DNA of 64,000 nt from Candidatus Xenobia bacterium (GCA_045863235.1 BTUM01000010.1:32001-96000); one strand, 5' to 3'; shown: positions 16,364-39,765, counted from the stretch's first letter. A program made the numbers and translations. The notes: generated from the letters alone by a model not told the origin.

Positions 16364-16825
16364 ATGAAGATAATGCCCAGAGCGATTGAGGGTCTGATCG
16401 TAAGTCCCGTCGGGGACGGAGACTCGGTAGTCTTCAATAAACAGCAGAATCGCGTTCACTCTCTGAATGCCGTGGCTGCCAGGGTTCTCTCGGCGTGCGA
16501 CGGGGTCACTCCGATGAGCGACGTTGTGCAAGCTCTGGCACCAGCTTATGGTGACAGTACCGAAGATGTCCTCTGGTTAACGCTCCGGAGGCTGCAGAGC
16601 TCAGGCCTGCTGGCCACTCCCCTGCCAGGCAACGGGCTCTCATCCAGACGCGAGTTCTTGGGCAAATGGGGCAAGATCGCGGCCGCGCTGCCCATCGTGG
16701 CCTCCATCGCCGCTCCGGCGCCGGCGGCCGCCCAGTCAGCTGGATGCGGGTTCTTTGGAGACCCCTGTCCCTGCTGTCCCGGTTTTGGTCTCGCTTGCGT
16801 GGGCGGTATTTGCACTGCCACCTGA
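16364..16825 (+). CDS. PqqD/RRE-domain protein fused to a twin-arginine-like signal and a Cys-rich C-terminal peptide
   Basis: VHSLNAVAARVLSACDG...LRRLQSSGLL (PqqD pattern); SSRREFL...AALPIVASIAAPAPAAA/QS; tail CGFFGDPCPCCPGFGLACVGGIC. Confidence 0.8.
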   Translation: MKIMPRAIEGLIVSPVGDGDSVVFNKQQNRVHSLNAVAARVLSACDGVTPMSDVVQALAPAYGDSTEDVLWLTLRRLQSSGLLATPLPGNGLSSRREFLGKWGKIAAALPIVASIAAPAPAAAQSAGCGFFGDPCPCCPGFGLACVGGICTAT

Positions 16826-17928: not shown

Positions 17929-17982
17929 CCTGGCCATTGTCGCGTGGGGGTCGTCGAAAGCGAGATACCGCTGCCGATTCCT

Positions 17983-18783
17983 TTACAGGCCCAGATATTC
18001 TCGTTCCTCATAAAGACGCATCAGATTGTCAAAAAAGCTGCTCCCCTTGTCCACCATGAGCACCTGGCCGCTGACCCCATCCATCAACCCCGAGCAGAGA
18101 GCCAGGATGACGTTGGCGACCTCCTCGCACGTGATGAACTGGTTGGCGCCGAAGCGGCTGGCGAAGTCCTCGAACTCGGGGCCGAAGGTCGCCCGCAGCG
18201 ACTCGGTGCGCACCAGTCGCGAGCGAACCACGTTGATGCGGATGTCCTCAGCGTGGAGTCGAAAGTTGATGTATCGACAGAGGGTCTCCATGACGGCTTT
18301 GGAGGCGGCCACGAAGTCATAGTTCTTGTAGAAGGCGTCCGGCCCCCCGCTGGACAGACCGACGACGTAACGGGGATAACGGCCGAAGGATGCCTGGATG
18401 GCTCGGGTAATGGCGTACATGGGCCAGGCACTGTAGTGAATGCTCTGGTAGAGGGCGCGCTCCTCATAATCCTCCAGGCCCCTGACGATCAGGGCCACCG
18501 AGACGTTTGAGACAAATGCTTCCACGCCATCGTGCTCGGCTTTCATGCGGGCCAACAGCTCTTTGCTGTCCTCTTCCCGGCCGACATCGGCGCAAACGAT
18601 CCGGGGGGTCGGGAGTCCGGCGTCACGGAACTGTTTGAGGACCTCATCCTCCTCGGCCGTACCCCACTTGTGGGTCAGCCATGCCACCGCGCCCTGTCGG
18701 GCGAAAGCCAGTCCGGTCGCCAGCCCGATGCCCATGGTGGCGCCGGTGATCAGCACCGCCTTCCCGCTGAAGTCATTGATCAA
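17983..18783 (-). CDS. SDR enoyl-ACP reductase, FabL-like
   Basis: GKAVLITGATMGIG; YDFVAASKAVMETLCRY (Y-x6-K, FabL/FabI type); TTG start after GAGGA. Confidence 0.75.
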   Translation of the reverse strand: MINDFSGKAVLITGATMGIGLATGLAFARQGAVAWLTHKWGTAEEDEVLKQFRDAGLPTPRIVCADVGREEDSKELLARMKAEHDGVEAFVSNVSVALIVRGLEDYEERALYQSIHYSAWPMYAITRAIQASFGRYPRYVVGLSSGGPDAFYKNYDFVAASKAVMETLCRYINFRLHAEDIRINVVRSRLVRTESLRATFGPEFEDFASRFGANQFITCEEVANVILALCSGLMDGVSGQVLMVDKGSSFFDNLMRLYEEREYLGL

Positions 18784-19522
18784 GAGATTCCTCGATTCCG
18801 CTCCGAGCCTCTGGCGAGGCAAAACTCACCCGGTGCATCAGAGACTCGACGGTGTGCGTGCGCTCAAAGGCCTGGCGGCGGGGCAGGGAGAGGGTGCGTT
18901 TGAGGATCTCCAGCGCGCCGCGAGGTTTCTCGGCAAATCGGGCGGCCAGGTCCATGGCCCTTCCCAGCACCTGCTCGCGCGGCAGGATGGCATTGAAGCC
19001 GCTGCGCCCCTCGAACCAGGAGCCCTTCTTCGGCTCGCCTCCGAACAAGAGCTCGCAAGCCAGGGCCGGGGTCATGACGTGGGTGAGCAGTTCGGTGAGG
19101 CCCATTCCCGGAGTGAACCCCATGTTCATGAAACTGGCGCCATAACGGCTCTCCCGGGCGATCAGCAGGATGTCGGCGCAAATTCCCAGCGCCAGCCCTC
19201 CCCCGATGGCGTGCCCTTCCATGGCAGCGATGACGGGCACCGGAAGATCGAGCACCACCTTGGGGAGCACGATGTCGGCTGGAGCCAACCGTCCCCCCAG
19301 CAGTCCCACCAGCACCTCGCGGCTGGCACCCGAGCAGAACACCTCCGGCAGGCCGCTCAGCACGATGACGCGCAGCTCGGGCCACTCCGTGGCCGCCCGC
19401 AGGTTGGCCAGCAGAGCTTCGACAAAGGCCTCGCTCATCGCGTTCTTGCCCGCTTCGTCGCGCATCGCGATCTGGGCGATCCCGCCTTCGTGACGGAGGC
19501 ACTCGATCACCGTTTCTCCCAT
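18773..19522 (-). CDS. enoyl-CoA hydratase-like ECH2 (PksI-type beta-branching decarboxylase)
   Basis: MRDEAGKNAMS, AAMEGHAIGGGL, FMNMGFTPGMG, LKRTL motifs typical of PksI. Confidence 0.85.
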   Translation of the reverse strand: MGETVIECLRHEGGIAQIAMRDEAGKNAMSEAFVEALLANLRAATEWPELRVIVLSGLPEVFCSGASREVLVGLLGGRLAPADIVLPKVVLDLPVPVIAAMEGHAIGGGLALGICADILLIARESRYGASFMNMGFTPGMGLTELLTHVMTPALACELLFGGEPKKGSWFEGRSGFNAILPREQVLGRAMDLAARFAEKPRGALEILKRTLSLPRRQAFERTHTVESLMHRVSFASPEARSGIEESLDQ

Positions 19523-20208
19523 GGCGCCCGGCCGTGCTCCACGAAGTCGCGCACCCGGCGCTGTACCCTGGGCTCGGCCAGCAGCTCGTCGGTGATCAGA
19601 ACGCCTCGAGCCAGCCCCTCGGCCAGCTCCAGGCGCTCGGCCTGGCTGACGAAAGAACGCAGGCGCCCCGCGCCAACGCCCCGGGCCAGATCGCGCGACC
19701 AGCGTCGGGCCACTCGCTCCAAAGAATCCTCCGGGGCGATCTCATCCACCAGGCCACTGGCCTGAGCCCACTCGGCAGTCCGACTGCTCCCGACCATGGC
19801 CAGCAGTCGAGCCTTCTGAGGAGACATCCGTTGCAGCAAGACGGGCATGATGATGGCCGGCAACAGACCGAACAGACATTCCGGCAGCCCGAAGGTAGAG
19901 CGCGGCGTGGCCAGCACCAGGTCGCAGGCCGCGGCCAGGCCCAGCCCGCCTCCCAGAGTCTCGCCGTCCACCAGGGCCACGGTCGGCACGGGAGCCTCGA
20001 CCAGGCTGGCGAGACAGGCTGCAAAATCCTGCGTGCTCGGTGTCTGGCCCATCAGGGCAAGGTCGAGGCCGCGGCAGAAGATCCCCGCCTGGCCCTCCAG
20101 CAGCCAGATCCTGGCCTCCTCCGCGGCTGCGCGCTCGAGCTGGTGGGCCAGCCCGGCCAAGGTCTCGGGCGACAGTGTCGCCGGCACCTCAATGCGCATC
20201 AGCTCCAA
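19507..20208 (-). CDS. enoyl-CoA hydratase-like ECH1 (PksH-type beta-branching dehydratase)
   Basis: FCRGLDL, GGGLGLAAACDLVLA, FGLPECLFGLLPA, GLVDE; sits between HCS and ECH2. Confidence 0.85.
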   Translation of the reverse strand: MELMRIEVPATLSPETLAGLAHQLERAAAEEARIWLLEGQAGIFCRGLDLALMGQTPSTQDFAACLASLVEAPVPTVALVDGETLGGGLGLAAACDLVLATPRSTFGLPECLFGLLPAIIMPVLLQRMSPQKARLLAMVGSSRTAEWAQASGLVDEIAPEDSLERVARRWSRDLARGVGAGRLRSFVSQAERLELAEGLARGVLITDELLAEPRVQRRVRDFVEHGRAPWEKR

Positions 20209-21425
20209 CCATACTGGCGATAGAATTCGTGGGCACCGCGAAAGACGAGATAGCCCTTGCCGGCATAGTGTCTCTCGTACCAGTGGTCAAAGCCACTCGT
20301 GTCGGCCTCGAAGTCGCCGTCGTCGATGTGGGCCGTGCGCTCGCCCTCGGCCTGCTCATACTCCTCAACGCTGAGCCCATGGCGCTGGTCGAGCAACCTC
20401 TTGAGATCAGCGGCAGCTGCCACCGAGTGGGCCTGCGGGCCGAGCAGGCCGCTCCACATTTCCGAGCAGCACCCGGATCCGTAAGAGAACATCCCGATTC
20501 GATCCCCGGTCTCAAGCTCGGGGCACTCGTCCAGCAGGCCCAGCAGGCCCACGAAAGTGCTCGAGCCATAGGTTCCACCCAGGCGACGGATGTAGGTCAG
20601 CGAGGGTCGGGTCTTCTCGGCCCAGAGCTCATCCGCCTCAGATCGCTTGTAGCTGCCAAAGTGGCCCAGAGCCGTGCGCGTGGCCCGCAGGGTCAGCCCG
20701 CCGAAAGGCGCGTGGTAGACATTCTTTTTGAAGTAGTCGTAACCGACGCTCTGACCGAGCGTCCTGAGGTAGTCCGCCACAGCCATGTCCAGTGCTTCCA
20801 GATAACTGAGCAGGCTGGTCTCGCTGTTGCCGGTCTCTACCCGCGAGGTTGGCCGGGTGAGGTCCGAAACCTCGTTGGTGAAGATGCCGCTCTTGCCCGG
20901 CTCGATCTCCAAAAGGTCGGGCTCAGACGAGACCAGCAGGGCCGTGGCGCTGGCGCCCATCACGAACTCCCACGGCTTGCCAAAGTGGGCCCGGCTCTGA
21001 TCGGTCGAGATCACCAGAGCCTTCTTACCCGCCCCCCCGCTAGCCAGCCAGCTGGCGGCCATGTGCAAACCCGCGGTGGCTCCGTAGCACGCGTGCTTGA
21101 GCTCGAAGTTGCGGCAACGACTGGTCAGCCCCAGGTAGCGCTGGACCCAGGTGCTCATCGGCTTCTCCTGGTCCACCCCGCTCTCGCTGCCCACGATCAA
21201 GAGCTCGATCGAGGCCTTCTCTTCCTCGGTCAGCATGGGCAGGGCGGCGTTCACGGCCATGGTGACCGGGTCTTCCCAGGGTGGATTGACGCTGCGCTCG
21301 TCGATCATCATGACCTCGCGGATATTGGCCGGGTCGTGGTTGCGGGCCGCGCACAGGCGGTCCATGGGGAGGGCCATGCTGGCCGGATAAACCCGAGCCT
21401 TCTCGATGCCGACGCGCGAGCTCAT
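20199..21425 (-). CDS. HMG-CoA synthase-like 3-hydroxy-3-methylglutaryl-ACP synthase (PksG-type)
   Basis: EDPVTMAVNAA, SESGVDQEK, FELKHACYGATAGL, SLLSYLEAL, YHAPFGG, FSYGSGCCSE. Confidence 0.92.
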   Translation of the reverse strand: MSSRVGIEKARVYPASMALPMDRLCAARNHDPANIREVMMIDERSVNPPWEDPVTMAVNAALPMLTEEEKASIELLIVGSESGVDQEKPMSTWVQRYLGLTSRCRNFELKHACYGATAGLHMAASWLASGGAGKKALVISTDQSRAHFGKPWEFVMGASATALLVSSEPDLLEIEPGKSGIFTNEVSDLTRPTSRVETGNSETSLLSYLEALDMAVADYLRTLGQSVGYDYFKKNVYHAPFGGLTLRATRTALGHFGSYKRSEADELWAEKTRPSLTYIRRLGGTYGSSTFVGLLGLLDECPELETGDRIGMFSYGSGCCSEMWSGLLGPQAHSVAAAADLKRLLDQRHGLSVEEYEQAEGERTAHIDDGDFEADTSGFDHWYERHYAGKGYLVFRGAHEFYRQYGWS

Positions 21426-22162
21426 GGACCCCAGTCCAGCCCGCCGGTGACCGAGATGGCTTCACCATTGATATAGCTGGCGGCCTCGGAGCAAAGAAAG
21501 AGGATGGCTCGAGCCGCCTCGACAGGCTCGCCGGTGCGACCGAGCGGGTTGTAGGTTATCCAGAACTGCCGGTTGCCCTCGCTCATTCCCTCGCGGGTCA
21601 TGTCGGTCTCGATGAAACCGAGCAACACCGCGTTACTGCGGATGCCGCGGCGGCCATACTCCTTGGCCAGGGTGCTGGACAGACCGAGCAGGCCGGCCTT
21701 GCTGGCGGCGTAGGGAGCCTGACCGCTGATTCCCTTCGCCCCCATCGAGGAAACAAAAACGAGGCTGCCGCTTCGATTGGCCACCATGCCAGGGAGAAAT
21801 TGACGAGCCACAAAGAAAGAGCCCGTCAGGTTGGTATCGATGACCGTCTGCCAGGTTTCGTCCGGCATGTTGGCCGCCAGTCCGTTCAGGTTGATGCCGG
21901 CGTTACAGATCACCGCATCCACCCGGTCGAAGTCATCGAGCACCTGGTTTCCGACCTCATCGACCTGGTCCGAGTTGCGCACATCTAGAGGATAAGCCTG
22001 GCAGCGAGCCTCGGGACGGACCGCGTGGGCGGCTCGGATGACCTCCTCGGCCCGGTCGGGGCTGGTGTGGTAGGTAAAAGCCACCTCGTAGCCCTGACGA
22101 ATCGCCTCCAAAACGATGGCCTGGCCGATTCCGCGCGATCCCCCGGTGATGAAGACGTTCAC
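21422..22162 (-). CDS. 3-oxoacyl-ACP reductase (FabG-like SDR)
   Basis: TGGSRGIG, CNAGI, NLTGSF, GQAPYAASKAG, GFIETDMT; GTGA overlap with the KS. Confidence 0.9.
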   Translation of the reverse strand: MNVFITGGSRGIGQAIVLEAIRQGYEVAFTYHTSPDRAEEVIRAAHAVRPEARCQAYPLDVRNSDQVDEVGNQVLDDFDRVDAVICNAGINLNGLAANMPDETWQTVIDTNLTGSFFVARQFLPGMVANRSGSLVFVSSMGAKGISGQAPYAASKAGLLGLSSTLAKEYGRRGIRSNAVLLGFIETDMTREGMSEGNRQFWITYNPLGRTGEPVEAARAILFLCSEAASYINGEAISVTGGLDWGP

Positions 22163-23457
22163 GCTCCAACCTCCTCGGGCTCGGGGCGGCGTAAGATGGA
22201 CACCGAGTTGATGCCTCCGAAGCCAAACGAGTTCTTCATGACGTAGCGCATCGGATGCTCCACCACGCGCCCGCGGCAAACGTCCAGGTCGACCTCCGGG
22301 TCCAGCTCATCGATATTGATGGAAGGATGCAAGCGACCGGCGTTCATCTGCAGGATGGCTGCCACCGACTCCACCAGGGGGGCAGCCCAGCAGGTGTGGC
22401 CGAGCATGGACTTGGTCGCGTTCAGCTTGAGCTTGTAAGCGTGAGGTCCGAAGACCTTCTTGATGGACCGAATCTCGGTCAGGTCGCCGAGCGGGGTGGA
22501 GGTGGCGTGGGCATTGACGTAGTCGATCTGCTCCGGGGCCAGTTGGCAGGTTTGGAGCAGTCGCAGCATCAGCCTGGACTGACCCTCCTCGGAAGGCTGG
22601 GGCAGGTGGTTGCCGTCCGAGTTGCTCTCCACCCCGACCAGCTCGGCATGGATGCGGGCCCCCCGACGGCGGGCCGCCTCCCAGGACTCCAGCACCAGGG
22701 TGGCGCCCCCGTGGGCCGGCACGAAACCTTCCCGGCGGACGTCAAAGGGACGGCTGGCTCGGGTGGGGTCGTCGTTGAAGCTCTCAAAGGTAATGGCGCC
22801 CATCAGCGCCATGGCGTGCAGCTCCACCGGGGAAAAATCCAGCACCGCCCCCACCACCACGGCCACCTCCACCTCGTGGTAACGAATCTCGTCCACTGCC
22901 GAGCGAAGGGCGGCGTTGCCGCTCGCGCAGGCGCCTCCGATGGTGTAGATGGGGCCCATCACCGGCAGGACCTCGGAGATCGAGCCGGCATGATCGGTGT
23001 CAAGGCCCGTCAGAGCGAGCAGCGAGTCCATATAGTCCGGCTCTTCCTCGAACTGCAGCCGGTTCTGGTACTGGAAGTCGAAGTTGATGTTGTGACCGGC
23101 CACGATGGCGGCGATCCGGGATGGATCGATCTCCTGGCCGAACAGGCCCGCGTCCTGAAAGCCGTCCACCGCCAGCAGCATGGAAAGGCCGGTCGACCAG
23201 GGGGCGCGGGAAACCAGCTTGCGCAAGCGCTTGTGGACGTCGGCCGGAATCTCGCTGCTCAACCGGGCCAGTTTTGCCTTCACGTCGTAGTCGCTGAGGT
23301 CGGCTCCCACCTTGGAGTAGATCCGGGAGGTATCCCAGCGCTTCCAGTTGGAGAGGGCCGAGCGGCCCGCCAGCAAGGCCTCGAGGTAGCCCGGCAGCGT
23401 GTCCCCCAGGGGAGTGTTGATAGCCATCCCCGTGACGGCGATGCGCTCACTCCTCAA
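22159..23457 (-). CDS. beta-ketoacyl-ACP synthase, PksF-like but with the active-site Cys retained
   Basis: YTIGGACASGNAA, SRPFD.RREGFV, YVNAHATST.LGD, TKSMLGH, NSFGFGGINS. Confidence 0.9.
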   Translation of the reverse strand: MRSERIAVTGMAINTPLGDTLPGYLEALLAGRSALSNWKRWDTSRIYSKVGADLSDYDVKAKLARLSSEIPADVHKRLRKLVSRAPWSTGLSMLLAVDGFQDAGLFGQEIDPSRIAAIVAGHNINFDFQYQNRLQFEEEPDYMDSLLALTGLDTDHAGSISEVLPVMGPIYTIGGACASGNAALRSAVDEIRYHEVEVAVVVGAVLDFSPVELHAMALMGAITFESFNDDPTRASRPFDVRREGFVPAHGGATLVLESWEAARRRGARIHAELVGVESNSDGNHLPQPSEEGQSRLMLRLLQTCQLAPEQIDYVNAHATSTPLGDLTEIRSIKKVFGPHAYKLKLNATKSMLGHTCWAAPLVESVAAILQMNAGRLHPSINIDELDPEVDLDVCRGRVVEHPMRYVMKNSFGFGGINSVSILRRPEPEEVGA

Positions 23458-23953
23458 CCAGGTAGACCTCTTGAACCGAATACGAGCAGATCGTCTCCCG
23501 GCAGAGCACCTGTCCCAGGCACAGAGCCGTGTAATCGTTCCAATCGAGGATGCGGGCCAACAAGGTCAGCTCGCTGTCGGGGCCGATGGCCTCCAGATAC
23601 TCGGCGGTGTGCACCTTGAGGGCCCGCACTCGAGACGAGCGCCCCAGCAGATAAGGCAACAGGCACAACCCGAGCTGGCCCACCATCTCGATCTGCAGCA
23701 CCCCGGGATAGACCGGCTCGCCCGGAAAGTGGCCCGCGAACACGGGGTCGCTGGCAGACACGTAGCGTCGGCCCCGAATCGATTGCTCCTCGACGCCGAT
23801 GTGGGTGATCTCGTCCAAGAACAGGAATGGTTCGCGGTGTGGGAGCATCCGCTCGATCTCCTCGCGGCCCAGAAAGACCCCCTCCCCTTGCGGAACCCAG
23901 ATGGGCTTACGCCGGGCCGACTTACCGGTGGAACGCAGCTCCAGCGGGTCCAC
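23447..23953 (-). CDS. 3-hydroxyacyl-ACP dehydratase (FabZ-like)
   Basis: LPHREPFLFLDEI, FAGHFPGEPVYPGVLQIE. Confidence 0.9.
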   Translation of the reverse strand: MDPLELRSTGKSARRKPIWVPQGEGVFLGREEIERMLPHREPFLFLDEITHIGVEEQSIRGRRYVSASDPVFAGHFPGEPVYPGVLQIEMVGQLGLCLLPYLLGRSSRVRALKVHTAEYLEAIGPDSELTLLARILDWNDYTALCLGQVLCRETICSYSVQEVYLVEE

Positions 23954-24893
23954 TCAGAAGCTCCTCCACCAGCGTCGCCATTGAAGCACCAAAATCTCCT
24001 TCTGAGTCGGTCGTGTAGCGCTTCGGATCCAGCCACTTTCTTCCAAAGAAGTCCGTAAGCACCGATTTGGGGCCGGTTTCTACGAAGATCAAGTCTTTCT
24101 CCTGCCGAGAAAGGCACTCCATGGACTCCCTCCAGCGCACCGGATTCCAGGTGTGGCGAGACAGACAATCGATGAAACCGACGCGATCGGGCTCAGCCAG
24201 GAATTCTCCCGTCAGGTTGGGCAGATAGGGGCGCTCTGGGGTCCGCCAGCAAGCCGCCTCCAGGGCCGGCCGCAGGACCTCCCCGGTGGAGCGAAAGCGG
24301 GGCGAATGCATGGGCAATCGCTCCTCGATCACGCGCGACTGGGCATAGAACTCTTCCTCGGCCTGCAGGGCCAGTCTCTCGACCAGGTCGGCCTGGCCGG
24401 AGAGGACGCACTGGCGGGGCGTGTTGTACATTCCGATGCCCACCTGCCCGTCTGTCCTGGTCCGCTCCAGGAGCTCCTCGATCTCCTCGGGACCGACCGG
24501 AAAAACTGCCGTCATGACTCCCTCGGGACCCTCCTCATAGGCCAGGCCGCGAACTTCGAGGATGCGCAGCGCCTCCTCGAAATCCAGGGCCCCGATGTGA
24601 ACCAGGTGATTGAACTCGCCCAGGCTCAGGCCAGCCGAATACTCCGCCTCCAGGCCCTGCCGCTGCAGATTCTGCCAGTGCATGTGATTGGCCAGAAAAA
24701 CCCCCAGCTGGACGTCGCGGTTGCGCTCGAACACCGTCGGATTGTCGGAGCGAAAGTGGCGCTTGAGGTCGCGTCCGAGAACGTCCGAGGCTTGCTCGAG
24801 AATGGCCAGGTTGCGGGGATCCCAGGCCAGGAGGTGGTCGAACATAGCCGGGTATCTGGAGTTTTGTCCGGGGAAGAGCAGAGCGACGGGCAT
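23922..24893 (-). CDS. ACP S-malonyltransferase (FabD-like)
   Basis: LLFPGQ, AGLSLGEF (GxSxG), R in VRG, PMHSP, PVRW, FVETGP. Confidence 0.9.
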   Translation of the reverse strand: MPVALLFPGQNSRYPAMFDHLLAWDPRNLAILEQASDVLGRDLKRHFRSDNPTVFERNRDVQLGVFLANHMHWQNLQRQGLEAEYSAGLSLGEFNHLVHIGALDFEEALRILEVRGLAYEEGPEGVMTAVFPVGPEEIEELLERTRTDGQVGIGMYNTPRQCVLSGQADLVERLALQAEEEFYAQSRVIEERLPMHSPRFRSTGEVLRPALEAACWRTPERPYLPNLTGEFLAEPDRVGFIDCLSRHTWNPVRWRESMECLSRQEKDLIFVETGPKSVLTDFFGRKWLDPKRYTTDSEGDFGASMATLVEELLSGPAGAAFHR

Positions 24894-24966
24894 GGGGCTA
24901 ATGGGCTCTCGCTCGGGTCGTGCCCGGCAGCACAATCTGGCGACCGGGCCGCCACAGGCATTGCAC

Positions 24967-26235
24967 TTAGACCTGGACCCCCTTGAGCAAGCCTCTGCTG
25001 CGCATGGCCGGCACGATCACGTCGGCGATGATCCCGAGCGCCTGGTCCAGGCTCTCGCGGCTGTGCCCGGCCGTCACGCTGGCCCGGAAGCGCAACTGCT
25101 CGAGCGGGACGCTGGGATAGTCCACCGGGCTGACGAACAGGCCCCGGTCCCGGAGGGCGTGGCCCAGTTCGTAGAGCAAGGCCCGGTCGTCGCCGATCAC
25201 GATGGGAATCACGTAGCTGTTGGAATCGCCCGTATTCAGGCCCAGGCCATGGAGTTGCCGGCGGAAATAGTTGGCGTTCTCCCACAGGCGCTCTCGCCGC
25301 CACGGCTCTTCCCGGACGACCTCCAGCGCGGCCGACAGACCGGCGACCGTGGCCGGGGGCAGAGCGCACGAGAAGCCATAGGGATTGGAGTAGAAGCGCA
25401 GGTAATCGACGATCTCCGGAGTCGCAGCGGCAAAGCCCCCACACGATGAAAAGCCCTTGGAGAAGGTTCCATACTGGATGCCGACCCTCTGGCCGGCTCC
25501 AAAGTGCTCCACGACCCCCCCACCCCCGGGTCCGCAGCACAGGATGGAGTGGGCCTCATCGACCAGCATGCCCACCCGGTGGCTTTCGGCCACCTCGAGC
25601 AGGGCCGGCAGGTTGGCCATGTCGCCATCCATCGAGTAGATCCCCTCCACGATGACGATCCGGCGCTTGCCGCTCTCCCGGGTCAAGATGGCGTCCAGAG
25701 ACTGCGGGTCATTGTGCTGGAAGAAGGCCAGCCTGGCTCCCGATACCCGGACCCCGTCCACCAGCGACGTGTGGGAGCGCTCGTCGAGGACGGCGCAGTC
25801 CCCCTTGCGCAGCAGTCCGGCCACCGTCCCCAGCGCGCCGGCAAATCCGCTGTTGTAGGTCAACACGCCCTCCTGCCCGGTGAGAAGCCGAAGTCCGCTC
25901 TCCAACTGGTCGTGCAGGGTGGTTCGGCCCGAGAGGATGGGTGAGCCGCATGAGCCGGTGCCGAACTGATCGAGCGCGTCCTTGGCGGCCTGGATGATCT
26001 TTGGATGGCGCATCAGCGCCAGGTAGCCGTACGAGGCCATGTTGATGACCGACCGGGAGCCCAGTCGGCAGGTCGCTTCGGCAGCCGAGCCCAGGGAAGG
26101 CTCGTAGAGGGAGATGGCCCAGGCCACGTCGCGCCGCCACTTGAGGAAATCGGGCGGGGGAACCAGCGGATCGTCAGTCTCGGCCAGAAAAAAATCTGCC
26201 AGGCTGAACTTGTCGGATTCAGACCCTGAGTTCAT
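24967..26235 (-). CDS. PLP-dependent alpha-oxoamine synthase (serine palmitoyltransferase/BioF family)
   Basis: NMASYGYLAL, GTGSCGS..LSG, H.SLVDG, FQHND, EGIYSMDGD, LVDEAHS, GTFSK (PLP lysine), FSCALPP. Confidence 0.9.
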   Translation of the reverse strand: MNSGSESDKFSLADFFLAETDDPLVPPPDFLKWRRDVAWAISLYEPSLGSAAEATCRLGSRSVINMASYGYLALMRHPKIIQAAKDALDQFGTGSCGSPILSGRTTLHDQLESGLRLLTGQEGVLTYNSGFAGALGTVAGLLRKGDCAVLDERSHTSLVDGVRVSGARLAFFQHNDPQSLDAILTRESGKRRIVIVEGIYSMDGDMANLPALLEVAESHRVGMLVDEAHSILCCGPGGGGVVEHFGAGQRVGIQYGTFSKGFSSCGGFAAATPEIVDYLRFYSNPYGFSCALPPATVAGLSAALEVVREEPWRRERLWENANYFRRQLHGLGLNTGDSNSYVIPIVIGDDRALLYELGHALRDRGLFVSPVDYPSVPLEQLRFRASVTAGHSRESLDQALGIIADVIVPAMRSRGLLKGVQV

Positions 26236-26238
26236 GGC

Positions 26239-26505
26239 TCAGGAGGCCGGGGCTTGTTCCTTCTGAGCGACGGTCTGGTGCAGAATGTCGACCAGGGCGT
26301 CCAGATTGGTGAGTTTGGAGAGCTCAGAGCGAGGGATCTTGACCTTCAGCTCGCGCATCGAGCAGGAAACGATCTCCACGATATCCAGGCTGTTCAGGCC
26401 CAGGTCTTTCATGGAGCGGGAGGGGTCGATCTGCGCCTCCTGGATCTCCTCGGAAATCTCCATGATGTGCTTGTTGATGACCGCTTGAATCGCTTCCCTC
26501 GTCAT
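26239..26505 (-). CDS. acyl carrier protein (AcpK/donor-ACP-like)
   Basis: SMKDLGLNSLDIVEIV (GxNS attachment motif), LKVKIPRSEL. Confidence 0.88.
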   Translation of the reverse strand: MTREAIQAVINKHIMEISEEIQEAQIDPSRSMKDLGLNSLDIVEIVSCSMRELKVKIPRSELSKLTNLDALVDILHQTVAQKEQAPAS

Positions 26506-26711
26506 GATCTGGAACCTCCCGTACTCGTGGCGGGGACTTCAAAGGGTCGTGTCGGCGTTCCTTCCAACCAAAAGCCGATCCCGGCCGACGAAGGGAGGAG
26601 GGCGAGGACCAGCGCCCGGGAAGGACCAGGCGGTCAGTTGGACCTGGCCAGGGGCGAAAGGCCCGGTGGTCGCCACAGGAACTCCGTGGAAGGCCGCTAA
26701 ACTCCCTCGTT

Positions 26712-27410
26712 GTGCGAGCGGGGTTGGTAGTTCCTCGAACCATCTTTCAGACCTGGCGCAACAAGACTGCTCTGCCCCAGGATGTGGAGCCTTACGTGGC
26801 CCGTCTGCGGGACTTTTGCATCCAACACGGATTCGAGCACGTCCTGGTCGATGATGACGAAATGACGAGCTTCGTCCGTGATTCGTTCCCGGGCTATCTC
26901 CCGGTCTATAAGTCCCTGGAGACCGTGGTGGAGCGGACCGACCTCTGGCGCTACCTGATCTTGCTCCGGCACGGGGGCTTCTATCTGGACCTGGACTGCG
27001 AGATTACGGAGGCGTTCGGCCGCGTGACGGACCATTTGGACAAGCCCCTGGTCCAGGTTGAGCACGACAAGTGGCTCGACTGGGCTCGAGGCGTGTGCCA
27101 TCTTCCCCAGATTGGCCAGTTCTTTCTCGGTTTTCCCGCCGGGAGCCCGATCCTGGAGGAGGTCGTAGCGGAGGTGGTCCGTCGCCTCGAGCACAGACCT
27201 TACCGGAAGCTGGGCCGCTATCAGGAGATCCTTTTCACGACCGGACCGGGGGCCTTCGGAGAGGTCGTGTGCCGCCACCGAACCCGGGTCCACTTCTTTC
27301 GAGTCAACCAGTTGGTCGTCCACCATACGCGAGGAAACTGGGTGGGCGGGCTCAACCGGGGTCCTCTGCGATGGCTCTGGCGCCGCTGCTCTGTTCCCTA
27401 TGTCCGGTAG
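26712..27410 (+). CDS. GT32 (Och1/Sur1-like, DXD) glycosyltransferase
   Basis: VPRTIFQTW, DLWRYLILLRHGGFYLDLD, TTGPG, HHTRGNW. Confidence 0.85.
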   Translation: MRAGLVVPRTIFQTWRNKTALPQDVEPYVARLRDFCIQHGFEHVLVDDDEMTSFVRDSFPGYLPVYKSLETVVERTDLWRYLILLRHGGFYLDLDCEITEAFGRVTDHLDKPLVQVEHDKWLDWARGVCHLPQIGQFFLGFPAGSPILEEVVAEVVRRLEHRPYRKLGRYQEILFTTGPGAFGEVVCRHRTRVHFFRVNQLVVHHTRGNWVGGLNRGPLRWLWRRCSVPYVR

Positions 27411-27522
27411 GAGTGAGAGGGTCCCGGGCCACGGGGACGGTTGACCGGTCCCACGGACCAGGAGGGCTCGGGAGCACCAGCCAGCAGCAGGAAGCCCTGG
27501 CTCGAGCCCAAAGCCTGCCTCC

Positions 27523-28494
27523 ATGCGCATCCTGGTTACCGGGGGGGGAGGGTTCATCGGCTCGGTCGTGGTCTTGAAACTGCTCGAGCAGGGCCACCAG
27601 GTGCGCTGCTACCTGCGTGACCCGACTCGGGCCCAGCGATTGCAGGGACTTGATTACGAGACCGCGCTGGGGGACATCCTGGATCCCGTGGCCACGGGGC
27701 AGGCTCTGGAAGGCTGTGAAGCGGCGATCCACCTCGCCTGCATCTCGGACTGGAGTAACATTCGCTCGGGACGGATGCAGCAGGTCGTGGTGCAGGGCAC
27801 CCGCAACGTGCTGGAGGCGGCTCGCCGGGCCGGTTGCCGCCGAGCCGTCTACGTCTCCTCCAGCCTGGCCGTCTGCGCCAGTGAGACGCCCCGGGTCTTC
27901 GACGAGTCCTCCCCCGCTTCACCCCATCTCTCCAGCCTGGTTTACGCCCGGGCCAAGGTCGAGGCCGAAGGGTTGTGCCGTGCCTTCTGTCGGGACGGAC
28001 TGGAGGTCGTGATCGTGAACCCCTGCGAGGTCTACGGGCCCAGGGATGACCGCCTGGTGACGGCCGCAAATCTGATCGATTTTGCCCGAAGCTCCCCGGT
28101 ACTGGTCTGCGACGGCGGGACGTCGGTCGTCTTCGTCGAGGACGTGGCCGAGGGGATCCTGGCCGCCCTGCAGCGCGGCACAGCAGGAGAGCGCTACATT
28201 CTGGGCGGGGAGAACCTCACGGTGCGCCAGTTGGCGGAGCTTACCCTGGAGTTGCTGGGCCGTCAGCAGAAGATCGTCAAGATGCCGAACAAGCTGCTGC
28301 GACCCATTGCCTGGCTGGGCCGCACCCTGCGCCTACCGCTGCCATTCGAGCCGGAGGTAATCCCCTACGCCACGCTCTACTGGTTCATGGACAACTCCAA
28401 GGCGTGCCGGGAGTTGAACCTGTCCTTTCGATCGGCCCGGGACACCCTGGCTCCCACCTTGCGCTGGCTGCAAGAGAGCGGCCACATTCGCTAA
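27523..28494 (+). CDS. NAD-dependent epimerase/dehydratase (extended SDR, HpnA/dihydroflavonol-reductase-like)
   Basis: ILVTGGGGFIG, VYVSS, YARAK, VNPCEVYGP, VEDVAEG, GERYILGGEN. Confidence 0.9.
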   Translation: MRILVTGGGGFIGSVVVLKLLEQGHQVRCYLRDPTRAQRLQGLDYETALGDILDPVATGQALEGCEAAIHLACISDWSNIRSGRMQQVVVQGTRNVLEAARRAGCRRAVYVSSSLAVCASETPRVFDESSPASPHLSSLVYARAKVEAEGLCRAFCRDGLEVVIVNPCEVYGPRDDRLVTAANLIDFARSSPVLVCDGGTSVVFVEDVAEGILAALQRGTAGERYILGGENLTVRQLAELTLELLGRQQKIVKMPNKLLRPIAWLGRTLRLPLPFEPEVIPYATLYWFMDNSKACRELNLSFRSARDTLAPTLRWLQESGHIR

Positions 28495-30854
28495 TCCCCC
28501 CGGGTGCCCAGCACCTGGGCGGGGTTGAGCCGGAAGATCTGGCGCAGGGGCAGGATGATCCCGGCCAGGCTGAGCAGCAGGCTGATGCCGGCCACCTGGA
28601 GCAGCGTCTTCGGTTGCAGAGCAAAGCTCAACTGAATCAGGTCACTCTGGTAGCTGTTCACCAGCCAGGCTCCCAGCGCCAGACCGGCGGGGATGCCCAC
28701 GGCCAGGCCGGCCAGCCACAGGAGCAGGGTCTCCACCACCAGCATCCTGGCCAGGATCTCATAGCGCACCCCCAGCACCAGCATGGTCACCAGCTCGTGG
28801 GTTCGCTCGGACAGATTCATCGTGGTGGTGCCCATGACCAGGGCCACCGCCAGGATGCCGGAGAAAGCAAACATCAGCCCTTCGTAGCTGGTCAACATGC
28901 GCAGGAGGTCGTCGATGTCGCCGACCATGTCGGCAAGATTGATCACCTGGGCGACCTGACCATGCTCGAGAAGTCGCCGGGCCAGGGTTCTGGCCGTGCC
29001 GGGCTGGCAGCGAACGAGCAACGTATTGACCCCGTCCGGGGGCATCGGCTCGGTCCGGGCCAGCTGCTGCTGGAGCCGGGGCAGGGCCAGCTTGAACGGG
29101 TTGCTGAGGGGCTCGAGCAGCACCGGCCCGACGCTGTAAGTGACCGGGCGAGCATCGCGAGGCGTGGTCATCCTCAGAGTGACCCGATCGCCGGGACGAA
29201 CTCCAAGCTGGCGGGCCAGAATCGGTCCCATGGTCAACTGGTCCTCGAACTGGACTGGCCGGCCCTGAAGGTCCAGAAGACGCAGCAACTGCGCCTGCTC
29301 GGGCACACCCCAGACGCTCCGTTCCACGAAGGCGGAATCCGAATCCACCCGGGAATGGCAGCGCAGGTAGTGCTCCACCCGCTCCACTCCCTTCCAACGG
29401 GAGATCGCGGGCAGGTCGGCCGGGCCGTAGATTCCACTCAAATTGACCTGGAGATCGTAGCGATGCACCTGGCTGAGGTAGTACTGCAAGGTGGAGGCCT
29501 GCCCGTCCAGAAAGGCGAGAGTCATCACGATCTGGGCCACTCCCGAGGCGATCCCCAGGACGCCGGCCAGAGTGCGCAGCGGGTGGCGCAAGAGGTTGCG
29601 TAGAGGCAGGCGAACGAGGTAGGGAAGACCGGCAAACCAGGCTCGCCCCGCTCGGACGGGCTCAAACTCGGCACGCAGGGCCTCCACCACCGGCAGGTTG
29701 ACGACCCGGCGCGTGGCCAGCCAGCCTGCCACGAGGCTGGAGCCCAGCGCCAGCCCGGCGGCCACCAGGTACCACCACGGATACAGGCTGGTCCGCACGA
29801 ACGGGATGCCCAGAACATCGCTGTAGAGGCGAGTGCAGAAGTCGGCCAACCAGCAGCCGGCCCCGATCCCCACCACCCCGGCCAGCAAGCCCAGACTGGC
29901 GCACATGCTGGCGTAGAGCCCCAGGCACTGCCACCGGGAGAACCCCAGGGCCATCAGAATGCCGATCTGACGGCGTTGCTGATTGACCACCTGCCAGAAG
30001 GCAACGAACAGAAAGAGCGAGCTCAGGGTCAAAAACAGCGACGGGAACAAGACCGCCATGGCCGCGAACGCATCCTGATCGCGCACCAGCATAGAGTAGG
30101 AGGGCTGCTGCTCCCTCATCACGGCCGGCCCGAAGAGATAGCGCTCGGCCACGGATTCGGCAGCCCGGGCCACGGCCTCCCGGTCGGCTCCCGGTCGAAT
30201 GCGAACGTGAATCTGGTGGAAACCGGCCTGGTGAGACAGTCCCTCCACCTCGCCGGGAGCACCAAAGAGGATGGCCAGGTTGCGGGCCGAGGGAATGGGG
30301 TCCTGACGGTCCTCGGCCAGCCAGATGTACTCCGGGGTGCTGACCAGACCGACCACCCGGAAGGAGGCGCGGTCCCGAACACCCTCAAATCGCAAGGTGT
30401 CTCCCAGATGAATCTGGTGGGCGGCAGCAAAGCGACGCTCCAACAAGACCTCACCCCGCCCCAAACGAAGAAGTCGCCCCTGGTGGAGGTGAACCCGGTT
30501 CACCTGCCCCTCACTGCCCGGCGGCAGACCGTGCAGGCGAGCCCGCGCATAGCGAAGGCGTCCTCTGGCGTCGCTGCCGACCACCACGCGCCCGCCGATC
30601 ACCTGGCGACCGGTGGCCACGGCCACGCCCGGCAACTGGCGAATTCGCTCCAGCACGGCCAGCGGCGCGCCCTCGACCTCCAGGGTGAAGTCCAGAAAGG
30701 CCAGTCGCTGATAGGTCAGCTCGGTGGAGAGCCGGAGGTTGAGAAAGGAAGAGTAGAAGGCTACGAAAAGGCAGACGGCCATCGTGATGATCAGCCAGGC
30801 TGCCCCAAAGGGGAGCCAGTGCTGGCGCAGGTCGCGCCAGCCCTTCAAGAGCAA
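28491..30854 (-). CDS. ABC transporter permease, duplicated MacB-PCD/FtsX type
   Basis: Two repeats with QRRQIGILMALGF and ERTHELVTMLVLG, multiple TM helices. Confidence 0.88.
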   Translation of the reverse strand: MLLKGWRDLRQHWLPFGAAWLIITMAVCLFVAFYSSFLNLRLSTELTYQRLAFLDFTLEVEGAPLAVLERIRQLPGVAVATGRQVIGGRVVVGSDARGRLRYARARLHGLPPGSEGQVNRVHLHQGRLLRLGRGEVLLERRFAAAHQIHLGDTLRFEGVRDRASFRVVGLVSTPEYIWLAEDRQDPIPSARNLAILFGAPGEVEGLSHQAGFHQIHVRIRPGADREAVARAAESVAERYLFGPAVMREQQPSYSMLVRDQDAFAAMAVLFPSLFLTLSSLFLFVAFWQVVNQQRRQIGILMALGFSRWQCLGLYASMCASLGLLAGVVGIGAGCWLADFCTRLYSDVLGIPFVRTSLYPWWYLVAAGLALGSSLVAGWLATRRVVNLPVVEALRAEFEPVRAGRAWFAGLPYLVRLPLRNLLRHPLRTLAGVLGIASGVAQIVMTLAFLDGQASTLQYYLSQVHRYDLQVNLSGIYGPADLPAISRWKGVERVEHYLRCHSRVDSDSAFVERSVWGVPEQAQLLRLLDLQGRPVQFEDQLTMGPILARQLGVRPGDRVTLRMTTPRDARPVTYSVGPVLLEPLSNPFKLALPRLQQQLARTEPMPPDGVNTLLVRCQPGTARTLARRLLEHGQVAQVINLADMVGDIDDLLRMLTSYEGLMFAFSGILAVALVMGTTTMNLSERTHELVTMLVLGVRYEILARMLVVETLLLWLAGLAVGIPAGLALGAWLVNSYQSDLIQLSFALQPKTLLQVAGISLLLSLAGIILPLRQIFRLNPAQVLGTRGD

Positions 30855-30868
30855 GCGGGGCAGCCTGA

Positions 30869-31126
30869 TCAGTGGCTTTGGGAGCGCGCGCGCATCAGGT
30901 CCTGCAGGTCGCCGATGGTTCTCAGGTTATCGATGTCGCTGTGCTCGAGCGTGACCCCGAGATTCTCCTCCAGGATGATCACCATCTCTACCAGTGTGAT
31001 CGAGTCCATGCCCAGATCGCGAATGGCCTGGCTCCTGGTCAGAGTGCCAACCTCCGGGAGAGCGACATGCTTGAGGGCATCGCGCAAGGCCTCGAGAAAT
31101 TGCGGGTCAAGGGGCTCCTCGCTCAT
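30869..31126 (-). CDS. acyl carrier protein
   Basis: DLGMDSITLVEMVIILEENLGV, TIGDL. Confidence 0.88.
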   Translation of the reverse strand: MSEEPLDPQFLEALRDALKHVALPEVGTLTRSQAIRDLGMDSITLVEMVIILEENLGVTLEHSDIDNLRTIGDLQDLMRARSQSH

Positions 31127-31186
31127 GGGAGCTGAGGTTTCTCGCCCAGACACACTGCCCCCTCTTTGCTCGAGTCGAAGATGCGT

Positions 31187-32275
31187 TTAGCGCAGCGCGG
31201 GCTTCTCCAGCACGCGATAGATTTTGTAGCGGCGGCCGCCCAGAATCCGGGCCAGGCTGTTCATGGGCTGGTTGTCCTCCAGCACCCAGGACACCTCCAG
31301 GGCCCGCCATTTCACGCGCACTCCCTCGCTCAAGACAGCGTTCGCCAGGGCACCGGCCACCATGGCTCCGGAGAGATCGGCGCCGAGGTCGCGCCGCACC
31401 CCCAGCGCATAGCCGCGGAAGCGGTCAATGGACTTGCGCCCCCAGAGGTAACGCAGCACGAAGCCAGGTGTGATGCGGCCTCGGGAGGCCTTGATGAGGG
31501 GGTTGTAGTTGGGGAGCAAGAACAGGCTCCCGACCTCCCGACCCTCATAGCTGGCCAGCCAGACCAGTTTCGGATCGAGAAAGTAGCGAGTCAAAAGCAG
31601 CAAGGCCTGCACCTGCTCCTCATCGATCGGCTCGAAACCCCAGTTCCCTGACAGCGCGCTGTCAAAGACCTCAGCCATGCTACGAACGTCCTCGGTGAGG
31701 CGCGAGCGATTGAGCGTGCGCACCTCGACCCCGCACTGCTCGGCTCGCTGGGCCGCCCTCCGGGCCACCTCGAGACGCGCGCTGTCGGGAAGGATCTCGT
31801 AGGCATAGAGGTCTTTGAGCTTGTGCATCCCGGCCTGCTCGAGATACTCGAGATAGTAGGCCGGGTTGTAAGGCATCAGGAAGTAAGGCTCGTACTCGAA
31901 GCCCTCCACCAGAAGGCCGCTGTAGGACTCCTCCAGACGGAAGTGGTACGGTCCTCGCATGGGAAGCTGAGGAGCCAGTTGGTGAGCTTCCTCCAACAGC
32001 CTGACCAGAGCCTCGCGGTGACCCTGAACGCACTCCAAGAAGCCAAAGTGCAACGCATCCCCGTGGATCTTCACTCCCACCCGGGCTACCGGCTCTCCGT
32101 CCTCCAGAGCCAGGAGAAAACGCCTCTCCGGGTCGCGCAGCCGCCCCATCAGCTGGCGCAGGTGCATCCAGACCGGAGGGACCCAGAGCGTGGCCGGGTC
32201 GCTGTGGACTCGCCAGGAGAGGTCCATGAAACGTCGTACCTGGGACTGGCGGATCACGGGCACGATCTTCAGCAT
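31187..32275 (-). CDS. YghO-family GNAT acyltransferase, resembling bacterial ceramide synthase (bCerS)
   Basis: FMDLSWRVHSDP..WVPP, FGFLEC, MRGP, GLLVEGF..P.FLMPYNPAYY, NWGFEP, LPNYN, LGV, SWVLEDNQPM, YKIYRV. Confidence 0.75.
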   Translation of the reverse strand: MLKIVPVIRQSQVRRFMDLSWRVHSDPATLWVPPVWMHLRQLMGRLRDPERRFLLALEDGEPVARVGVKIHGDALHFGFLECVQGHREALVRLLEEAHQLAPQLPMRGPYHFRLEESYSGLLVEGFEYEPYFLMPYNPAYYLEYLEQAGMHKLKDLYAYEILPDSARLEVARRAAQRAEQCGVEVRTLNRSRLTEDVRSMAEVFDSALSGNWGFEPIDEEQVQALLLLTRYFLDPKLVWLASYEGREVGSLFLLPNYNPLIKASRGRITPGFVLRYLWGRKSIDRFRGYALGVRRDLGADLSGAMVAGALANAVLSEGVRVKWRALEVSWVLEDNQPMNSLARILGGRRYKIYRVLEKPALR

Positions 32276-33435: not shown

Positions 33436-33526
33436 GCTGGAGCCTTCGAACGGCAACCGCGGCCTCCTGCAGGAGCGCTCCCCCCAAGCAGGAATCGAGC
33501 CTCTGCAACGGGAGCGGTCGATTCTC

Positions 33527-36745: not shown

Positions 36746-36788
36746 CTTTCGAGCAACTGCGGCAGGTCCAGGGAAAACGCCTGCCTGG

Positions 36789-39681: not shown

Positions 39682-39765
39682 TCGCCCGCCGACTTCAGAG
39701 GCCTGATCGAGAATCCTCCTGCTCAACTTCGTCGCAGAAAGGAGAGAACGCTTGTCATCGAGTAA

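Follow-up and report, generated by a model that had tools for sequence, protein, structure and literature searches.

Does a ten-gene operon on the (-) strand of a Candidatus Xenobia bacterium contig make a methyl-branched sphingolipid with the help of a polyketide-type branching machinery? The operon occupies positions 17983-26505 of a 64,000-nt stretch (GCA_045863235.1, BTUM01000010.1:32001-96000), which is called the window below. It joins the discrete enzymes of a type II fatty acid synthase (FAS) and a beta-branching cassette, consisting of an HMG-acyl carrier protein synthase (HCS) and two enoyl-CoA hydratase-like proteins (ECH1 and ECH2), with an alpha-oxoamine synthase (AOS) related to serine palmitoyltransferase (SPT). 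The host genome (Candidatus Eremiobacterota) has a size of 8.36 Mb in 166 contigs and is 97.6% complete. The argument is built on gene content, catalytic motifs, family placement, the lack of a partner polyketide synthase (PKS) and the retention of the core across phyla. In our assessment, it is somewhat probable that an SPT-like enzyme receives its acyl chain from a dedicated beta-branching type II FAS and that the product would then be N-acylated, glycosylated and exported. The host probably makes a branched sphingolipid-like membrane lipid, undescribed so far.

Chain-building and beta-branching enzymes of the operon

The ORF listing and the Pfam and NCBIfam scans recovered all ten genes that a first-pass annotation of the sequence had named, each on the (-) strand at the positions given below. 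They are co-oriented and mostly overlapping, with overlaps of 4-121 nt or gaps of 3-31 nt between neighbours, and are thus arranged as in an operon. The ten ORFs are real genes, as seen from a third-position GC of 0.80-0.86 in the eight ORFs that passed the filter (the acyltransferase (AT) and ketoreductase (KR) ORFs failed it), from Pfam E-values of 1e-8 to 1e-57, and from a gene order kept in 30 loci outside the genus.

Six separate genes make up a type II FAS set of AT, ketosynthase (KS), KR, dehydratase (DH), enoyl reductase (ER), and acyl carrier protein (ACP), as the first-pass annotation had proposed, and the condensing KS is intact. The first gene of the operon encodes the dedicated carrier ACP1 (26239-26505; PP-binding 2.1e-8), which has the motif serine (LGLNSLD) and whose top NCBIfam model is PRK07117 (AcpK-like; 60.9 bits, under the cut-off of 79); 3 nt separate its end from the AOS gene. 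The malonyl-CoA:ACP acyltransferase is FabD-like (23922-24935; Acyl_transf_1 2.6e-14; fabD TIGR00128 129 bits, under cut-off). Its nucleophile motif reads GLSLG, the canonical acyltransferase motif being GHSxG. The FabZ-like 3-hydroxyacyl-ACP dehydratase (23447-23953; FabA domain 1.6e-15) contains the motif HFPGEPVYPGV and scores 66-73 bits with FabZ models, under their cut-offs. The FabG-like 3-ketoacyl-ACP reductase (21422-22279; adh_short_C2 9.5e-57; TIGR01830 225 bits) has a Pfam match that begins at residue 42, which probably places the true KR start further downstream than listed. The last gene encodes a short-chain dehydrogenase/reductase (SDR) of the enoyl-ACP reductase type (17983-18822; adh_short_C2 3.2e-30), for which the top NCBIfam model is FabL (99 bits, far under cut-off); a Y-x6-K motif was read by eye, a spacing that we take to be the mark of FabI/FabL enoyl reductases. 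Since the FAS-type proteins of the operon are all under the housekeeping equivalog cut-offs, they form a paralogous, dedicated set. No FabH-type initiating KS was found in the cluster.

The KS (22159-23457; ketoacyl-synt N and C domains, ~1e-33) is FabF/PksF-like, with the PksF-type PRK07103 as its top model (355 bits, under the cut-off of 445) and FabF as its closest PDB match (241 bits). The KSs of beta-branching cassettes are decarboxylases, with the active-site Cys replaced by Ser. This replacement was not found in the operon KS: it retains the Cys-His-His triad (GACAS) and is therefore a condensing enzyme, and the Cys is present in 27/27 orthologues and both His residues in 31/31.

The branching enzymes proper follow. 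The HCS (20199-21425; HMG_CoA_synt_C 1.2e-17) is of the PksG/CurD type and nearer to these than to HMG-CoA synthases, matching CurD with 261 bits and PksG with 246 bits in the PDB versus 187 bits at most for HMG-CoA synthases; it scores 261 bits against an HMG-CoA synthase equivalog cut-off of 360. The motifs SESG, ACYGAT, and YHAPF were read in its sequence, and we take them to be the Glu/Cys/His triad motifs of HCS. It is accompanied by a dehydratase and decarboxylase pair. ECH1, a PksH-like dehydratase (19507-20208; ECH_1 5.4e-31), is the weaker match of the two (top model PRK07112 with 128 bits, under the cut-off of 250; PDB 4nnq 106 bits, PksH 73 bits). ECH2, a PksI-like decarboxylase (18773-19522), passes PRK07110 (261 bits, cut-off 215) and matches PksI with 157 bits and CurF with 135 bits.

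The alpha-oxoamine synthase and the YghO-family acyltransferase

The AOS (24967-26235; Aminotran_1_2 1.2e-44) is a pyridoxal phosphate-dependent enzyme of an SPT-sister clade and has the lysine motif FSK. Among PDB entries, it is closest to Sphingobacterium SPT (253 bits) and Thermus AOS (ThAOS, 246 bits), followed by KBL (217 bits), Sphingomonas SPT (205-210 bits), AONS (183 bits), and CqsA (101 bits). For the phylogeny, eight alphaproteobacterial proteins passing NF047599 (597-677 bits, cut-off 500) served as SPT references; no genome passed the cut-off of 670 of NF047603, and NF047599 was used instead. E. coli BioF and Kbl, one cut-off-passing KBL, and one ALAS were added. In the 37-row maximum-likelihood tree, all cluster AOSs formed one clade (99/95), which, together with a KS-ACP-AOS fusion protein of the host genome (joining at only 93/75), was sister to the clade of eight SPTs (joint node 97/93). 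KBL and BioF fell outside this grouping in the trees, and the AOS neither grouped with them nor passed their models; the proposal that it is not a BioF or KBL enzyme is borne out by the phylogeny, in which a grouping with BioF would have spoken for the contrary.

The genomic context of close AOS relatives points in the same direction. A metagenome scan with the AOS gave 69 loci, three of which contain the HCS cluster (two from the same genus, the third being L088). A further 20 soil loci encode AOSs 52-62% identical to that of the window and have no cassette; a YghO-like GNAT lies ~1 kb downstream in 12 of the 20, and the contigs of the remaining eight stop within 1.1 kb of the AOS. These soil AOSs are nested within the window AOS clade (22 rows, SH-aLRT 99; quick tree of 63 rows). 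In the three soil operons examined (3/3), the AOS stands in the order Lipid_DES desaturase, FA_hydroxylase, AOS, CDP-alcohol phosphatidyltransferase, GNAT, CDP-alcohol phosphatidyltransferase, where Lipid_DES is the domain of sphingolipid delta-4 desaturase. This desaturase/hydroxylase/AOS/GNAT operon probably specifies a pathway by which uncultured soil bacteria make phospho-sphingolipids. The AOS is associated with a ceramide-synthase-type GNAT (5 kb off in the window) and, in the soil loci, with sphingolipid-modifying genes as well. Of the evidence that the AOS clade makes sphingoid-type bases, this soil operon context is the strongest. The remaining metagenome loci had AOSs 30-45% identical to that of the window, mostly KBL-like where they were included in the tree. 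The examined soil operons lie at 8066-14799 of L091, 635-6948 of L100, and 797-7251 of L093, and their AOS is 54% identical to that of the window. In L088 (462-11260), a 37%-type and a 52%-type AOS flank an ACP and a second SDR; with both types present in one locus, the two AOS clades are probably not interchangeable.

A second ACP and a YghO-family protein had been proposed upstream of the operon on the same strand, and both are there, 4.4 kb from it. The latter, P0001 (31187-32275, (-), 362 aa), is a YghO/bCerS-family tandem GNAT and a candidate N-acyltransferase, identified from YghO homology and fold. It had no Pfam match below 1e-3, and its sequence had no PDB match at E up to 1, so that the fold was reached through a model. 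It aligns end to end with YghO of E. coli K-12 (26% identity over 368 columns, E 1e-38), and this full-length homology makes the YghO-family label that it had been given correct. Its AlphaFold2 model (pLDDT 93.7) has a tandem-GNAT fold and matches MAB_4324 and the mycothiol synthase MshD with a TM-score of ~0.6, which would suit an N-acyltransferase acting on an amine. In all five alphaproteobacterial genomes with a cut-off-passing SPT, the distance between the SPT gene and that of the top P0001 homologue (28-33% identity, E 1e-37 to 1e-45) is 6.4-17.5 kb. This proximity mirrors the clustering of spt and bcerS in published accounts (PMC11334938 and PMC11087976).

The host genome encodes two AOSs and two YghO homologues, which are paired per contig at distances of 5 kb (window) and 21 kb. 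The second pair lies on contig C7 (59720-92987; L066 and L067) and consists of the KS-ACP-AOS fusion of 1318 aa and a YghO paralogue 44% identical to P0001. Its neighbours encode a myo-inositol-1-phosphate synthase, a PEP mutase with a nucleotidyltransferase domain, LicD (two copies), an ABC exporter, a PhyH dioxygenase, PAP2_3, GINT1_N (the family of glucosamine inositolphosphorylceramide transferase), and an MGDG-synthase-like glycosyltransferase. The C7 locus looks like a second sphingolipid-type locus, rich in head-group genes.

In the window, the GNAT gene appears to form an upstream operon on the same strand with genes for a GT4 glycosyltransferase, ACP2, and a permease. The GT4 gene (32269-33546, (-); Glycos_transf_1 5.4e-32), whose top NCBIfam model is GlcN-PG synthase (145 bits, under cut-off), has its stop overlapping the GNAT start by 7 nt. 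ACP2 (30869-31153, (-); PP-binding 1.5e-9) has a 60% identical homologue beside the cluster in G003, a genome of the same genus. The duplicated FtsX/MacB-type permease (28491-30854, (-); FtsX 1.7e-33, MacB_PCD 8.3e-16) is a candidate lipid exporter and has a 42-43% identical homologue in the corresponding loci of G003 and of the sister species G004. A second GT4 glycosyltransferase gene (33365-34690, (+); Glycos_transf_1 9e-25) has homologues of 39-40% identity in the same two loci. Two further genes sit between the two (-) operons and are divergent from ACP1: one for a DXD glycosyltransferase (26712-27410, (+); Gly_transf_sug 1.7e-10; 100% kept in L011 and L085), and one for an HpnA-like NAD-dependent epimerase/reductase, a candidate ketoreductase (27523-28494, (+); Epimerase 2.5e-37; TIGR03466 (HpnA) 226 bits, under cut-off). 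In the Kofleriaceae locus L019, the cluster is followed by an SPT-clade AOS in place of the usual one, and between this AOS and the cluster ACP a fusion protein is encoded (epimerase-FAD_binding_4-ALO; L019 12949-15801) whose N-terminal domain shares 57% identity with the HpnA-like protein. The ORFs 26697-27557(-) and 27554-28069(-) were treated as spurious, as they had no family match and overlap the better-supported (+) DXD glycosyltransferase and epimerase genes.

Distribution of the cluster and alternative explanations

An HCS search of 41 related genomes of the order found the gene in three, all of the same genus, and in 0/36 genomes of the order outside the genus. The scan of GTDB species genomes gave 32 HCS loci, 30 of them outside the genus. 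The cluster is commonest in Myxococcota (Polyangiaceae, Haliangiales, Kofleriaceae, and others); further loci come from Vicinamibacterales and another acidobacterium, an alphaproteobacterium, a Phycisphaeraceae (Planctomycetota) metagenome-assembled genome (MAG), one MAG labelled Actinomycetes, and one labelled Pseudomonadota. All ten genes were detected by tblastn in 16 of the 32 loci (15/30 outside the genus), with complete clusters in Polyangiaceae, Haliangiales, Kofleriaceae, Vicinamibacterales, the alphaproteobacterium, and the Phycisphaeraceae MAG. Counted by gene in the same way, the 32 loci contain HCS in 32 (by construction), KR in 31, KS in 29, ECH1 in 29, ECH2 in 28, DH in 26, ACP in 26, SDR in 25, AOS in 23, and AT in 23; most of the incomplete loci are cut by contig ends. 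Two paralogous ER-type SDRs are present in most loci versus one in the window. The flanks of the cluster are unrelated between lineages, and a core kept across phyla with unrelated flanks indicates that the unit of about ten genes is self-contained and mobile.

Within the genus, two genomes (G001 and G002) have the same arrangement as the window. In G003, the GNAT is 68% identical to P0001 and lies 16 kb from the cluster, with glycosyltransferases, ABC transporters, an FtsX permease, and the ACP2 homologue in between. The sister species G004 (97% complete) has no HCS. Its corresponding locus (L081, C74:1-20000) encodes the C-terminal ER-KR-ACP part of a type I PKS, an AOS, an SDR, a GNAT (67% identical), six glycosyltransferases, ABC transporters, and FtsX; the free AOS is 37% identical to that of the window and groups with the KS-ACP-AOS fusion of the host. 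This gene content indicates that the GNAT/glycosyltransferase/exporter backbone is kept and that the chain-building module before the AOS has been exchanged. Such a swap with a type I PKS in one genus suggests that sphingoid bases are built from exchangeable chain-building modules in bacteria.

A number of observations weigh against the proposed sphingolipid-type pathway. The earlier description of the AOS as SPT-like stands insofar as the enzyme is sister to the reference SPTs, but it lies outside the SPT clade and passes no SPT model, in a comparison whose reference set is narrow (eight alphaproteobacterial proteins) and whose trees are without Bacteroidota SPT, CqsA, and CFAT. None of the 16 cluster AOSs scanned passed the NCBIfam cut-offs for SPT, BioF, KBL, or CqsA. 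Their scores are 247-341 bits whether bioF, Kbl, or SPT models are used, the window AOS reaching 224-299 bits with SPT models (cut-offs 500-670), 313 with bioF (cut-off 426), and 284 with Kbl (cut-off 460). At the 15 columns separating SPT from KBL, the cluster AOSs have the SPT residue at seven, the KBL residue at two, and another residue at six, a pattern that leans only weakly towards SPT. The view of the GNAT as a ceramide synthase, supported by the occurrence of its family near true SPTs in 5/5 genomes, is not supported by its subclade. In the 42-row GNAT tree, the window GNAT and its paralogue belong to clade A (16 rows), and the SPT-linked proteins to clade B, together with two cluster-linked GNATs from other phyla and the YghO of E. 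coli, a species not known to make sphingolipids; placed in a separate subclade, the window GNAT does not have its bCerS orthology established by the tree. The anticipated co-occurrence of HCS-ECH-ECH with both enzymes held for the AOS (23/32 loci) and was rare for the GNAT, which is near the cluster in only two of the 30 loci outside the genus. In G043 and G044 (Vicinamibacterales and Kofleriaceae), both of which have the cluster, YghO homologues were not found; with the GNAT rare outside the genus, this indicates that the ceramide step is lineage-specific. No loader of ACP2, be it an acyl-ACP synthetase or another, was seen among the window ORFs scanned. No homologue of the HpnA-like protein was found near SPT in the five SPT-bearing genomes (E 1e-10), and the HpnA-like enzyme is consequently not a CerR orthologue. 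Among the loci themselves, L014, L015, and L033 have several kb of flank and no adjacent AOS, and L018 has no AT, ECH1, or ECH2 and is beside a WS/DGAT wax-ester synthase. Regulators are found beside the cluster in various lineages: two LuxR proteins in L019 and one in L035, Crp-type proteins in L017 and L020, and a Ser/Thr kinase in L026, L029, L039, and L041, with a sigma-70-family factor too in L026, L039, and L041. Such regulator-rich flanks are typical of secondary-metabolite clusters and fit a secondary metabolite or signal. Overall, the interpretation offered by the first-pass annotation is partly supported: the free-standing system and the non-BioF AOS hold, but SPT clade membership and a general GNAT link do not.

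Some of these points would agree with a different product. Instead of a membrane sphingolipid, the core might yield an alpha-amino ketone or amino alcohol that is branched, free, and perhaps short-chain. Such a compound could serve as a diffusible signal, as a precursor of pyrazines, or as a bioactive secondary metabolite, and the GNAT, glycosyltransferase, and exporter genes of the genus would then be a separate glycolipid pathway. We regard this as unlikely, yet as the alternative with the most to be said for it. Outside the genus, the flanks are not kept and are rich in regulators, no GNAT is nearby in 28 of the 30 loci, and the Vicinamibacterales and Kofleriaceae genomes named above gave no YghO homologue at all. 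Within the genus, G004 has the GNAT/glycosyltransferase/exporter locus without the cassette, and the 16 kb between the G003 cluster and its GNAT hold different genes. Enzymes of the AOS family do make signals, CqsA being a member of the same superfamily. However, KR, DH, and ER are kept with the KS, which argues for repeated reductive elongation rather than a C5 product, and the AOS relatives nested in the clade share their operons with Lipid_DES and a hydroxylase, whose substrates are long-chain bases. CqsA is also the most distant PDB match (101 bits vs. 253 for SPT), and the G004 GNAT locus is likewise fed by an AOS. Finally, in two distant genomes, the alphaproteobacterial and Phycisphaeraceae MAGs (G041 and G042), the sole YghO homologue adjoins the cluster, at 2.3 and 1.3 kb from the AOS, respectively; in a Polyangiaceae genome with the cluster, it is on a different contig.

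Could HCS, ECH1, ECH2, ACP, and KS instead serve in trans a type I PKS or a PUFA-synthase-like protein encoded elsewhere, as AcpK/PksF-I serve the bacillaene PKS? The top models of ACP1, KS, ECH1, and ECH2 are indeed the Bacillus pks-type PRK07117, PRK07103, PRK07112, and PRK07110, and six large KS-containing ORFs are present on other contigs. The genome contains one HCS copy and 17 KS matches, and seven KS-bearing large ORFs were scanned for domains. The six on other contigs comprise one KS-AT-DH-ER-KR-ACP protein, four PUFA-synthase-like proteins, and the KS-ACP-AOS fusion. The remaining one, a stand-alone FabF-like KS, lies at ~50.2-51.4 kb of the window and is the only other KS there. None of the seven amounts to an assembly line that is multimodular or clearly AT-less. 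As had been noted from the sequence, the window contains no modular PKS or nonribosomal peptide synthetase, and the whole-genome check for a trans-AT PKS, with none of the 17 KS matches in a multimodular PKS, confirms that the system is free-standing; the gene content provides no modular PKS on which the cassette could act in trans. Moreover, in unrelated genomes, the cassette always comes with its own AT, DH, KR, and ER and usually with an AOS, the operon KS keeps the Cys that is replaced in decarboxylating cassette KSs, and the PKS-AOS-GNAT locus of G004 is without a cassette. A trans-acting cassette is therefore very improbable. That the AOS is a housekeeping BioF or KBL, standing in the operon by chance as the only free-standing AOS of the genome, is scarcely credible: the genome does have just two AOS-family genes (E 1e-20) and the bioF model is among the top scorers, but its 313 bits are under the cut-off, E. 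coli BioF and KBL and cut-off-passing KBL fall outside the clade with starred support, and the AOS is linked to the cluster in 23/32 loci across phyla.

Proposed pathway, related systems, and neighbouring genes

In the sphingolipid-type pathway that we propose, malonate would be loaded by the AT onto ACP1, and the single Cys-His-His KS would self-prime and elongate, with the reductive cycle carried out by the KR, the FabZ-type DH, and the Y-x6-K SDR. One beta-ketoacyl-ACP1 intermediate would receive a beta-methyl branch via HCS, ECH1, and ECH2. The AOS, translationally coupled to ACP1, would then take a small amino acid, probably serine, and condense it with the branched acyl-ACP1 to give a branched 3-keto long-chain base. 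In this genome, the base would be reduced by a ketoreductase, for which the HpnA-like enzyme is a candidate, and N-acylated from acyl-ACP2 by the YghO/bCerS-family GNAT. Sugars could be added by the GT4 and DXD glycosyltransferases, and the FtsX-type permease may export the product. We infer all of these chemical steps from the gene set, and likewise the identity of the amino acid, the length of the chain, and the place of the branch.

A single branching event on acetoacetyl-ACP1 would give an isovaleryl-ACP1 starter and hence an iso-branched base from malonyl-CoA alone. Since an iterative type II system has no modules that time the cassette, HCS acting on acetoacetyl-ACP1 would be the simplest control. 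For parsimony only, we slightly favour a terminal iso branch, introduced with the starter, over the internal branch suggested by the first-pass annotation. In its widest form, the proposal is of a sphingolipid class whose base is built de novo on a private ACP by a type II FAS with an integrated HCS cassette, having isoprenoid-like branches or a leucine-independent iso terminus from malonyl-CoA only. In Eremiobacterota, N-acylation, glycosylation, and export would turn the base into an envelope glycolipid; the chain module would be exchangeable, and the core would be spread in uncultured soil Myxococcota, Acidobacteriota, Planctomycetota, and Alphaproteobacteria. We offer this full scheme tentatively, as a possibility slightly short of probable.

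Several known systems resemble parts of the operon. The closest sequence relatives of its HCS, ECH1, ECH2, and small ACP are in the HCS cassettes of bacillaene (AcpK/PksF/PksG/PksH/PksI) and curacin (CurB-F); to our knowledge, such beta-branching cassettes are known only as modular PKS accessories. Unlike them, the operon has no modular PKS partner in the genome, its KS has the catalytic Cys, and its cassette is embedded in a full AT/KR/DH/ER set that ends in an AOS. In fungal sphinganine-analogue pathways (fumonisin, AAL toxin, and myriocin), a reducing PKS is combined with an AOS such as Fum8. There, too, a dedicated synthase makes the methyl-branched acyl chain and an SPT-like AOS adds the amino acid, and the PKS-AOS locus of G004 is a bacterial parallel. 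The fungal branches come from S-adenosylmethionine (SAM)-dependent C-methyltransferase domains, the products are toxins, and the synthase is type I, whereas the operon would take its branch from the HCS cassette, its synthase is type II, and the proposed product is a membrane lipid. In alternative isovaleryl-CoA biosynthesis, an HMG thioester is dehydrated, decarboxylated, and reduced by the enzymes MvaS/LiuC/AibAB to an isovaleryl thioester, the primer of iso-branched lipids. If the cassette acts at the starter stage, the chemical logic would be the same; in contrast, the operon intermediates would be ACP-bound and its enzymes are PKS-type HCS/ECH1/ECH2. Myxococcus xanthus is the organism for which this alternative route is described (PMC5389471).

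As in Caulobacter-type synthesis (Spt, bCerS, CerR, and a dedicated ACP; PMC11087976), the AOS is beside its own ACP, with glycosyltransferases and a GNAT of the YghO family, the family found near true SPTs, in the neighbourhood. The operon AOS is sister to the eight reference SPTs. In contrast to bacterial sphingolipid synthesis, the acyl chain would be supplied by a private beta-branching FAS instead of the cell's fatty-acid pool, the AOS stands apart from the reference SPT clade, the GNAT belongs to another subclade, and a reductase of the CerR type was not recognised. The genes of bacterial sphingolipid synthesis have been identified only recently, and the chains known from it are derived from the ordinary fatty-acid pool. 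Open-access papers and bioRxiv preprints gave no account of an HCS cassette coupled with an AOS or SPT, in which a polyketide-style branching FAS would supply the chain of a bacterial sphingolipid-type pathway. A Lactobacillus reuteri cluster was rejected as a relative because, according to PMC6498181, 'PksG' is a local name of a metallo-hydrolase and the fun cluster AOS occurs without HCS. If the proposal is true, it would add a third way of methyl-branching lipids beside branched-amino-acid primers and SAM methylation, and a new family of lipids, with possible biomarkers, would be expected from abundant uncultured soil phyla. The ten-gene operon is compact enough for a direct test by heterologous expression.

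The scan for promoters and terminators in 17500-33800 gave one promoter-like and 11 terminator-like sites, not above shuffled sequence. An NTP_transf_5 gene (16666-17928, (+)) lies between the cluster SDR and an acyl-CoA dehydrogenase gene; in L012 and the near-identical L085 and L086, the SDR is followed directly by the dehydrogenase, so the NTP_transf_5 gene looks recently inserted. Genes of the leucine-catabolism type are beside the cluster at 13112-16119 (-), namely the acyl-CoA dehydrogenase (14965-16119) and a biotin carboxylase with a weak BT_MCC_alpha match (13112-14968), and a carboxyltransferase of the same type is at 51619-53178 (-). Such genes border the cluster within the genus and not in other phyla, and a link with isovaleryl units is possible. 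At 34863-41196, beside the GT4 genes, there are genes for a MurJ-type flippase, two PMT_2 membrane glycosyltransferases, and a third GT4; together with the GT4 genes, this region looks like a wider envelope glycoconjugate locus.

In the clusters of other phyla, several additional genes were observed. An AurF-like di-iron oxygenase is encoded between DH and KS in L041 (6713-7804), and phosphopantetheinyl transferase genes are near the cluster in L020 and L024. A thiolase gene is present in the Polyangiaceae locus L013, and in this locus (3813-5129) and L020 (3823-5154), also from Polyangiaceae, a radical SAM protein of 438-443 aa is encoded directly upstream of the AOS.

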